Below, piece by piece: positions 659 to 1,143 of a stretch of DNA of 32,000 nucleotides. How positions within the stretch are numbered: position 1 is the stretch's first letter; each line of letters begins with the position of its first letter. The DNA is taken from contig NC_002939.5 in the NCBI RefSeq assembly GCF_000007985.2, positions 3,450,001-3,482,000 of the forward strand, given 5' to 3'. The stretch comes from Geobacter sulfurreducens PCA (GTDB lineage: Bacteria; Desulfobacterota; Desulfuromonadia; Geobacterales; Geobacteraceae). A program made the translations under genes and the position numbers. A model generated the notes under the pieces. That model saw only the letters and a program-made list of their open reading frames with translations, did no database searches and was not told the DNA's origin.

Positions 659-680
659 CCCTTCCTCCCGTGGTGTCCCG

Positions 681-714
681 AAAGACAAAAGGCCGGAGGA
701 TTTCTCCCCCGGCC
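681..714 (-). terminator. Leader terminator/attenuator hairpin B, about 23 nt upstream of the aroF start.
   Basis: Minus-strand RNA is GGCCGGGG-gagaaauc-CUCCGGCC, an 8-bp stem with one G-U pair, followed by UUUUGUCUUU. It lies in a divergent intergenic region, so it cannot be the terminator of an upstream gene. Confidence 0.6.
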
Positions 715-738
715 CAGTGGTGCTGCAGTATTGGTCTT

Positions 739-780
739 GAAAACTGAAAAGCCGGGGGTGGTTTCCTGTCCACCCTCGGC
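739..780 (-). terminator. Leader terminator/attenuator hairpin A, about 30 nt downstream of the leader-peptide stop.
   Basis: Minus-strand RNA is GCCGAGGGUGG-acaggaaa-CCACCCCCGGC, giving 10 bp plus one A.C mismatch, followed by UUUUCAGUUUUC. Confidence 0.6.
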
Positions 781-810
781 TTCCGGTTTAGTGTATGGTG
801 TGTGCTTCCC

Positions 811-903
811 CTACGACAAACCCCTACCCTGGGCAGACGGCCTAAAATAAAAGCCGTACCAAAAGTAAAAGCTCTCGTAGAAGTAGAAGCCCGAATTCAT
901 CAT
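811..903 (-). CDS. Aromatic-amino-acid leader peptide, 30 aa: MMNSGFYFYESFYFWYGFYFRPSAQGRGLS.
   Basis: Hand translation of the reverse complement of 811-903, from ATGATG to TAG. Residues 6-20 contain 6 Phe, 5 Tyr and 1 Trp, so 12 of 15 are aromatic. It sits in the 5' leader of the DAHP synthase gene and is followed by two hairpin plus U-tract elements. No strong SD is visible and the transcript may be nearly leaderless. Confidence 0.7.
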   Translation of the reverse strand: MMNSGFYFYESFYFWYGFYFRPSAQGRGLS

Positions 904-907
904 GAAT

Positions 908-940
908 CGTATAGTTGCCGATCCGGCAGGACATTGTCAA
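908..940 (-). promoter_or_regulatory. Putative sigma-70 promoter for the leader-aroF transcript.
   Basis: Perfect -35 hexamer TTGACA (complement of 935-940). Only weak -10 candidates follow (AACTAT at 18-nt spacing), about 6-8 nt before the leader ATG. Confidence 0.4.
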
Positions 941-1143
941 GCATTAATTCGTAATGGATACGCCATTGGTTCGATTTCTGCTTTATTCTTTCCAGGTGCC
1001 TCGTCGCAACGGGACATTAACGCATTTTCAACCACTTAACCACGCACAGCCGAACAAGACACTCACGACTGAGACCATGCCGAGGCAACCGGTGGTTATA
1101 GTTTAGGCACCCGTGACGGCCCGGCAGGAAGGAGCATCCAGAC

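Follow-up and report, generated by a model that had tools for sequence, protein, structure and literature searches.

Conserved aromatic-codon leader ORF and tandem terminators indicate probable ribosome-mediated transcription attenuation of aroF in Geobacter sulfurreducens and its relatives

The region upstream of aroF, the gene of a DAHP synthase of class I-beta, was analyzed in a window of 32,000 nucleotides (nt) of Geobacter sulfurreducens PCA (NC_002939.5, positions 3,450,001-3,482,000, forward strand; the coordinates given here are those of the window). This region very probably constitutes a ribosome-mediated transcription attenuator of aroF of the trp/pheA/his type, a reading to which a probability of about 0.85 is assigned. 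It carries a short leader open reading frame (ORF) that is conserved and has a coding signature, followed by terminator hairpins, and it contains alternative pairings that co-vary among species; in a folding model, the outcome depends on the position of the ribosome along the ORF.

The leader ORF lies on the minus strand (811-903), consists of 30 codons and a stop and encodes MMNSGFYFYESFYFWYGFYFRPSAQGRGLS. Its codons 6-20 (844-888, minus strand) form the putative regulatory run FYFYESFYFWYGFYF, in which 12 of the 15 residues are aromatic (six Phe, five Tyr and one Trp) according to the translation of 903-811. In the six-frame translation of the window no other 15-residue stop-free stretch with more than six aromatic residues was found, and all of the stretches of this length that scored between 7 and 12 overlapped the leader ORF. 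Downstream of the ORF there are two hairpins with U-rich tails, the terminator T1 (helix 3:4; 739-784, minus strand; stem 784-747, tail to about 739, -23.5 kcal/mol) and the terminator T2 (helix 5:6; 681-715, minus strand; stem 715-690, tail UUUGUCUUU to about 681, -23.2 kcal/mol). The 251-nt leader folded better than all of its 200 dinucleotide shuffles (z = -4.24). A simple terminator scan flagged T2 only, T1 being missed because of its bulge and its 8-nt loop. An earlier note on this DNA had described an ORF of this length, strand and composition, two U-tailed hairpins at 739-780 and 681-714, and their location in a divergent gap between aroF (minus strand) and an FKBP gene (plus strand). 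The ORF was recovered as described, both hairpins proved to be real, with coordinates right to within a few bases, and the gap is bounded by the aroF start at 658 and by the FKBP gene at 1144-1578.

The distribution of the element was analyzed by scanning species-representative genomes with the N-terminus of AroF. This search yielded 80 loci with 79-92% identity, belonging to Geobacter, Geomonas, Geotalea, Oryzomonas, Pelotalea and Geomobilimonas as well as to Geobacteraceae, Desulfuromonadaceae and Desulfuromonadales metagenome-assembled genomes (MAGs); one of them (L062), with upstream DNA too short to be judged, was left out. A small aromatic-rich ORF with the consensus ..F.F.FW[YCF]GF[YF]FRPS[AT].. 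was present at the same distance from aroF in 77 of the 79 informative loci. The leader was lost in the other two, both Desulfuromonadales MAGs: in L071, aroF sits directly behind a response-regulator gene with a gap of about 40 nt, whereas in L070 only a TTGACA and a T2-like hairpin are left behind an rplS-like gene. An alignment of 77 leaders (76 loci and the window itself) was used for the comparisons that follow. T1 and T2 occurred in all 77 (medians of -21 and -23 kcal/mol, respectively), both with U-rich tails. T1 reached -17 kcal/mol or lower in every leader, U making up 8 (median) of the 12 nt at the 3' end of the stem, and it was strong throughout even though the sequences of its arms differ between clades. 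T2 was paired in 94.2% of cells, and four of its pairs showed changes on both sides. Therefore, both the ORF and the hairpins are conserved in the orthologous leaders, a check that had been proposed for the earlier claim. A protein homology search with AroF returned only close relatives, with at least 83% identity, the nearest at 98%, and did not widen the phylogenetic range.

Additionally, metagenome contigs were scanned with a pattern built from the leader core, and 120 loci were obtained. In 109 of them aroF was located about 200 nt downstream (AroF identity 73-96%); 10 contigs were too short to be judged and the remaining one (L088) was a chance match. The element is therefore dedicated to aroF. 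This result bears on another explanation, in which the ORF would encode a functional small hydrophobic or aromatic protein, or the RNA of about 160 nt ended at T1 would be a small RNA (sRNA) acting in trans, or both, with attenuation of aroF secondary or absent. The leader does have its own strong promoter and terminators, and the products of the Sinorhizobium trpL attenuator, peTrpL and rnTrpL, are reported to have functions in trans. However, the element was found only before aroF and disappeared together with its terminators in L071, where aroF has become part of another transcription unit, the tail of the peptide is unconserved, and none of nine leader peptides sought among approximately 15 billion protein sequences was annotated; moreover, a role in trans would add to attenuation and not replace it. 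As an alternative to attenuation this explanation is thus considered very improbable, and, by analogy with Sinorhizobium trpL, the T1-terminated RNA or the aromatic peptide might also act in trans alongside it.

The aligned leaders showed the signature of a translated sequence. The ATG does not vary, and all 77 leaders keep frame 0 open over 21 codons, against 19 and 25 leaders for the other two frames. On average, 49% of the first 21 codons are aromatic. The invariant Phe positions alternate between TTT and TTC (58/19, 54/16 and 64/10), the Gly codon alternates between GGC and GGT (60/16), and Phe and Tyr are interchanged at seven positions. In the N-terminal half the positions of the aromatic residues differ between species, and their density is retained. 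The invariant Phe codon 20 sits in a hairpin loop, and so its conservation is not explained by RNA pairing. After ...RPSA, a 1-nt indel shifts the frame and the position of the stop varies, yet the nucleotides GGGTAGAGGT stay conserved; this tail is, judging from the alignment, constrained as RNA and not as peptide. It was also observed that TTT greatly exceeds TTC at the conserved Phe positions of the leader family (e.g., 70:1, 58:19 and 64:10), the opposite of the long ORFs of the window, which prefer TTC about 3:1 (177 TTC, 59 TTT). This bias may reflect RNA pairing (U:G and U:A pairs and a U-rich loop) or a slower wobble decoding.

The same data bear on a reading in which translation plays no part: the terminators would be under the control of a structured cis-regulatory RNA (for instance, a riboswitch or a leader that binds a protein or a tRNA), and the ORF would be incidental. 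Such an RNA would agree with the previous annotation of the element only as a conserved "short RNA element", with the very high nucleotide conservation of the helix-forming segments and with an ORF tail maintained as RNA rather than peptide. It does not account for an invariant ATG at a fixed distance from the promoter, for a single frame open in 77 of 77 leaders, for the synonymous changes at Phe and Gly codons and the free Phe/Tyr swaps, for the invariant codon 20 in a loop, or for aromatic positions that move while the aromatic content stays. Furthermore, the spacers between helices are variable among the 77 leaders, with no aptamer-like conserved core, and no Rfam family matched the leader, T-box and known riboswitches included, even at E <= 10. 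Control by a cis-acting RNA alone was consequently judged to have only a slight chance of being correct. The Rfam search (cmscan) of positions 500-1200 also detected no leader family (Phe, Trp, His, Leu, Thr and leu/phe leader) and no match to the T-box model at that threshold, and in the whole window nothing reached the gathering score. Two permissive matches were discarded: one to the Brucella sRNA BSR0739 (679-815, minus strand; score 24 bits, gathering score 191, E = 0.006), in which only the two terminator-like hairpins are aligned, and one to a hairpin fragment of the Moco riboswitch; both reflect generic GC hairpins.

The segments that could act as a switch were then defined on the minus strand. 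Region 1 (851-890) is the 5' strand of a long 1:2 hairpin and contains UGG UAC GGC (861-853), which pairs with region 2 (AGGCCGUCUGCCC, 831-843), formed by the Arg-Pro-Ser-Ala codons. The 3' strand of this hairpin continues in a G/A-rich segment (804-830) that holds the variable ORF tail and the stop codon. Region 2 can pair either with region 1 or with region 3 (GGGUGGAC(AGG), 765-775), which comprises the 5' arm of T1 and the first bases of its loop and is the antiterminator partner of region 2. Region 4 (CCCCCGGCUU, 749-758) is the 3' arm of T1 and an alternative partner of region 5, the 5' arm of T2 (GGGCCGGGGG, 715-706). In the minimum free energy structure of the window sequence, the aromatic codons of region 1 are paired with the downstream G/A-rich segment in a hairpin of -41.3 kcal/mol, at whose apex UGG UAC GGC pairs with GCC GUC UGCC of region 2, and T1 and T2 are both present.

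The alignment supported the alternative pairing. The columns of region 2 are invariant or nearly so, and RNAalifold returned three helices without prompting: that of the apex, T2, and a long-range one joining CUGCCC of region 2 to GGGUGG of the T1 5' arm. The antiterminator (2:3) comprises 8 bp between GUCUGCCC, at the Ser-Ala codons, and GGGUGGAC, which spans the T1 5' arm and two loop bases. It was paired in 97.7% of cells, compared with 37-63% when the partner was slid by 1-3 columns. Compensatory variation was evident at the column pairs 69:145 (UG 40, CG 17, UA 17) and 70:144 (GU 31, GC 22, AU 19, CG 2). The haplotype pairs GUCUGCCC:GGGUGGAC, GUCCACCC:GGGUGGAC, GUCUGCCC:GGGCAGAC, GUCUGCCC:GGGCGGAC and GUCUACCC:GGGUAGAC were seen, and no incompatible combination occurred among the 77 leaders. 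Likewise, 86 of 105 distinct metagenome leaders were fully paired in the antiterminator register, and the incompatible CA-by-CA combination was absent from all 105. In the T1 loop, GGGUGG is followed by the bases A and C, whose conservation is 90% or higher and which pair only in the antiterminator; this helix is therefore the only explanation for their conservation. With regard to the competing structure, the apex 1:2 helix was paired in 91.9% of cells, with CG/UA covariation at the column pair 51:63, and the extended stem between the Phe/Tyr codons and the G/A-rich strand in 83%.

The specificity of these helices was assessed by comparing the duplex energies of native partners with those of cross-species partners in 2000 permutations. 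Native partners were more stable for 1:2, 2:3, 3:4, 4:5 and 5:6, and none of the 2000 permutations reached the native mean; the control pairings 2:5 (p = 0.91) and 1:3 (p = 0.44) gave no signal. The earlier proposal to look for mutually exclusive antiterminator and terminator pairings involving the Phe/Tyr codon region was thus answered positively, with compensatory variation in the helices concerned. The pairing of the T2 3' arm with the Shine-Dalgarno (SD) sequence of aroF was also considered as a candidate and rejected. In the window the arm (UCCUCC, 690-700) is complementary to the SD (GGGAGGA, 659-669, in the region GGGAGGAAGGG on the minus strand) with -12.2 kcal/mol; no co-variation was found, and native partners did not differ from cross-species ones (6:SD, p = 0.92). 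The arm could occlude the SD when T2 is open, although there is no evidence that this is used. In two of the loci (L014 and L021) an insertion of about 50 nt was observed between T2 and the SD region.

The effect of a ribosome was modeled by keeping positions A-15 to A+11 of every A-site codon unpaired, on a transcript in which region 3 had been made and region 4 had not, that is, cut before the T1 3' arm. For the window sequence, the antiterminator had a probability of 0 when no ribosome was present or when its A site was at codon 2 or 3. The probability was 0.09 at codon 4 and between 0.64 and 1.0 over codons 5-19 (G F Y F Y E S F Y F W Y G F Y), dipping at codons 7-8; from codon 20 on it was again 0 (0.02 at the stop). 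The pattern persisted when the footprint edge was set at A+8, A+11 or A+14, and at both transcript lengths used. In the set of 77 leaders, the median probability did not fall below 0.92 between positions -13 and +3 counted from the Trp codon; it was 0.74 at +4, and from +5 to +15 it was 0. Eleven of the twelve aromatic-enriched codon positions lay inside the productive range, and essentially no aromatic codon lay beyond it. The trp/pheA/pheST-type architecture that had been proposed for the locus is thereby supported by conservation, coding signature, co-varying helices and ribosome-position modeling alike.

The released 3' arm of T1 may in turn affect T2. In the window, the 4:5 duplex (CCCCCGGCUU:GGGCCGGGGG) has -21.9 kcal/mol, and it was paired in 92.5% of cells in the alignment. 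When the antiterminator was enforced with the ribosome at the Trp codon, 4:5 formed in 75 of the 77 leaders. A relay in which 1:2/3:4/5:6 is exchanged for 2:3/4:5, relieving both terminators, is suggested by the co-variation and the folding model, and we regard the chances for and against it as evenly balanced.

A further reading is a nascent-peptide arrest leader of the TnaC/SecM type, in which ribosomes would be arrested by the motif FW.GF.FRPS when a ligand, such as a free aromatic amino acid, is sensed, and not through tRNA charging. Arrest peptides typically have conserved Trp and Pro, as TnaC does, and the core of the leader peptide contains invariant Trp, Gly, Pro and Ser. However, all of the conserved non-aromatic residues fall in codons of the 1:2 and 2:3 helices, which is a sufficient explanation for them, and an arrest motif does not need some 12 aromatic codons. 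TnaC stalls at a stop codon, whereas here the place of the stop differs between leaders and the C-terminal tail is variable and even shifts frame. The leader showed neither a fixed stop position nor a conserved C-terminal residue, and its terminators are intrinsic hairpins in place of the Rho-dependent termination of the TnaC type; two such terminators with a co-varying antiterminator fit classical codon stalling. An arrest mechanism therefore seems most unlikely.

Several observations weigh against ribosome-mediated attenuation or narrow what supports it. The conserved W, G and R-P-S-A of the peptide core mostly overlap the RNA helices, and hence their conservation is not creditable to the peptide. 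Codon 20, the last of the invariant Phe codons, falls beyond the productive range of the model. When the transcript was folded at equilibrium through T1, the probability of T1 was at least 0.92 at every ribosome position; as T1 always won, this mask folding did not discriminate and was replaced by the cut transcript, and it follows that the switch must be kinetic, i.e., co-transcriptional. In the classical trp attenuator 3:4 is likewise the most stable helix and the competition is kinetic. In addition, the antiterminator formed at equilibrium without a ribosome in part of the relatives (mean probability 0.39), and the "off" state of an untranslated leader therefore rests on 1:2 forming first. 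Finally, the complementarity of 4:5 is partly built in, since T1 and T2 share a GC-rich core centred on CCGG.

The promoter region was analyzed in the leaders aligned on the ATG. A -35 hexamer TTGACA (935-940, minus strand) was found in 74 of the 77 leaders and TTGACT in the other three. In the window it lies 31 nt before the first ATG, in line with the perfect hexamer about 30 nt upstream of the ORF that had been pointed out before; across the 77 leaders this distance came to 29-32 nt in 74 and to precisely 30 or 31 nt in 63. The family profile indicates a probable -10 hexamer AACTAT (911-916, minus strand; 18-nt spacer), with the A of the leader ATG 8 nt after it. Positions -12 to -7 relative to the ATG are A/T-rich, with A at -12, -11 and -9, and C occupies position -1 in 71 and position -2 in 54 of the 77 leaders. 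No purine-rich SD was found ahead of the leader ATG in the alignment, and the spacer between -35 and -10 was unconserved across the leaders, with no sign of a repressor operator. RNA polymerase prefers a pyrimidine at -1 and a purine at +1; on account of this preference and of the promoter geometry, the transcription start is placed on the A of the AUG or no more than 1-2 nt away. The leaderless translation that the earlier note had raised as a possibility is favored by this spacing and by the SD-less start, and we consider that the ORF has roughly an even chance of being translated from a leaderless mRNA. Directly 5' of the -35 hexamer (941-950, minus strand) there is a T-rich tract resembling an UP element (family consensus aatTTTTTtcTTGACA, L001-L080).

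In the proposed attenuation mechanism, RNA polymerase would initiate at a promoter of the sigma-70 type (TTGACA, 940-935), the probable first nucleotide being the A of the leader AUG (903), and the 30-codon ORF would be translated without a 5' untranslated region. With plentiful charged aromatic tRNAs, the ribosome would pass the Phe, Tyr and Trp codons and cover region 2 (Pro-Ser-Ala codons, GCCGUCUGCCC); if the ORF were not translated, the long 1:2 hairpin would sequester both region 2 and the aromatic codons. In both situations T1 would form, with T2 behind it, and transcription would halt before aroF. A ribosome stalled with its A site in codons 5-19 would cover region 1 and leave region 2 free to pair with the nascent 5' arm of T1 (GUCUGCCC:GGGUGGAC), so that T1 would be blocked; the orphan 3' arm of T1 would then pair with the 5' arm of T2, T2 would be bypassed and the polymerase would read into aroF. 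The expression of aroF would in this way be coupled to the supply of charged tRNA-Phe, tRNA-Tyr and tRNA-Trp. We infer that the ORF is translated, that its start is leaderless, that transcription terminates at T1 and T2, that the competition is kinetic and that the leader responds to the supply of amino acids. If the model is true, changing GUCUGCCC to GUCAGCCC would abolish antitermination, and the compensatory change of GGGUGGAC to GGGCUGAC would restore it. A more specific version, which we put forward tentatively and which is somewhat less probable than its parts taken singly, is that one leaderless ORF integrates the charging of three aromatic tRNAs at the first committed step and relays a single stall through two terminators; a 5' AUG translated on leaving the polymerase would then couple translation to transcription, a task for which classical attenuators rely on an SD and a pause hairpin.

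The aroF gene itself occupies positions 1-658 of the window on the minus strand, with its ATG at 658, and is truncated by the window edge. Its product contains the Pfam domains PF18152 (DAHP_snth_FXD) and PF00793 (DAHP_synth_1), the former in keeping with the N-terminal ferredoxin-like domain previously ascribed to the enzyme. In Geobacter sp. AOG1 (L005, 4020-5085), no aromatic pathway gene was found on the same strand downstream of aroF, the next clear gene being a convergent PAS histidine kinase, and the regulated unit appears to be monocistronic in this strain. Some database AroF entries (P0003, P0012, P0043, P0067 and P0116) are 361-380 amino acids long instead of 339, probably with start codons called too far upstream, into the leader or the T2 region. 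A Leu-rich ORF in an alternative frame of the leader (842-940, minus strand; ..GLLLLRELLLLVRLLF) was discarded: no start codon for it follows the promoter, its frame is open in only 25 of the 77 relatives, and it is a by-product of the Phe/Tyr codons. The TTG "start" of this ORF is the -35 hexamer itself.

[quoted passage not shown] Like the leader described here, it sits 5' of the orthologous gene for a Thermotoga-type DAHP synthase in Geobacteraceae, and the two are almost certainly the same element. That listing gives no ORF, terminators or mechanism, and a literature search on the element identifiers and on aromatic attenuators of deltaproteobacteria found nothing beyond this paper. The statement in the earlier note that no such leader was known for this enzyme class or lineage needs two qualifications: the element had been listed in 2009 without a mechanism (PMC2700814), and a leader-peptide attenuator of a DAHP synthase gene, aroR-aroF, is known in Corynebacterium glutamicum. 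The class of attenuators is well known, and the Geobacter aroF case was so far unannotated.

The model provides a concrete mechanism for an RNA element that has stood unexplained in Geobacter annotations since 2009. Leader-peptide attenuation would thereby reach the Geobacterales (Desulfuromonadota) and the entry of the shikimate pathway, where Phe, Tyr and Trp would be sensed together, and this control would complement the allosteric regulation by the ferredoxin-like domain of the enzyme. Its noteworthy features are the mixed Phe/Tyr/Trp codons, the tandem terminators apparently relieved in relay and the probably leaderless start; if true, it would represent a probably leaderless leader ORF outside Actinobacteria and two terminators under a single leader. 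The understanding of attenuation itself is left unchanged. The literature on Geobacter pilins and cytochromes stresses aromatic residues, and for Geobacter engineering the leader would be a control point for aromatic amino acid flux.

Among the known systems, the leaders pheL, pheM and trpL of Escherichia coli combine an ORF with codons for the end product, a 1:2 hairpin, a 2:3 antiterminator and a 3:4 terminator. The Geobacter leader shares this architecture with the leaders of pheA, pheST and trp, but it differs in mixing Phe, Tyr and Trp codons, in its position at the first common step of the pathway instead of a terminal branch, in an SD-less ORF abutting the promoter, in a second terminator after the first, and in having no match to Rfam Phe_leader or Trp_leader at E <= 10. 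In the attenuator of the Salmonella and E. coli his operon, one stall is relayed to the distal terminator by way of helices A:B, C:D and E:F, which alternate with B:C and D:E. The alternation of 1:2/3:4/5:6 with 2:3/4:5 would follow the same relay logic; the middle helix C:D of his is, however, not a terminator, whereas 3:4 of Geobacter has its own U-tail, and two terminators would thus be relieved in series. Leaderless short ORFs have been described in mycobacteria, where polycysteine ORFs are reported to act as amino-acid-responsive attenuators of downstream genes (bioRxiv 10.1101/834739). They sense cysteine and belong to Actinobacteria, in which about one quarter of the mRNAs are leaderless; the leaderless start in Geobacter is deduced from promoter geometry. 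The closest functional analogue is the aroR-aroF system of C. glutamicum, in which a leader peptide with Phe-Tyr-Phe precedes aroF and Phe limitation stalls ribosomes and raises transcription of the aroF operon, Tyr supply being reported as without effect (Neshat 2014, as summarized in PMC11802643). Compared by this functional description, both are aromatic-codon peptides before a DAHP synthase gene. The aroR-aroF system belongs to Actinobacteria and has a three-codon aromatic motif with no Trp codon, while the Geobacter leader combines about 12 aromatic codons and an invariant Trp with tandem terminators and a type I-beta enzyme bearing a ferredoxin-like domain.

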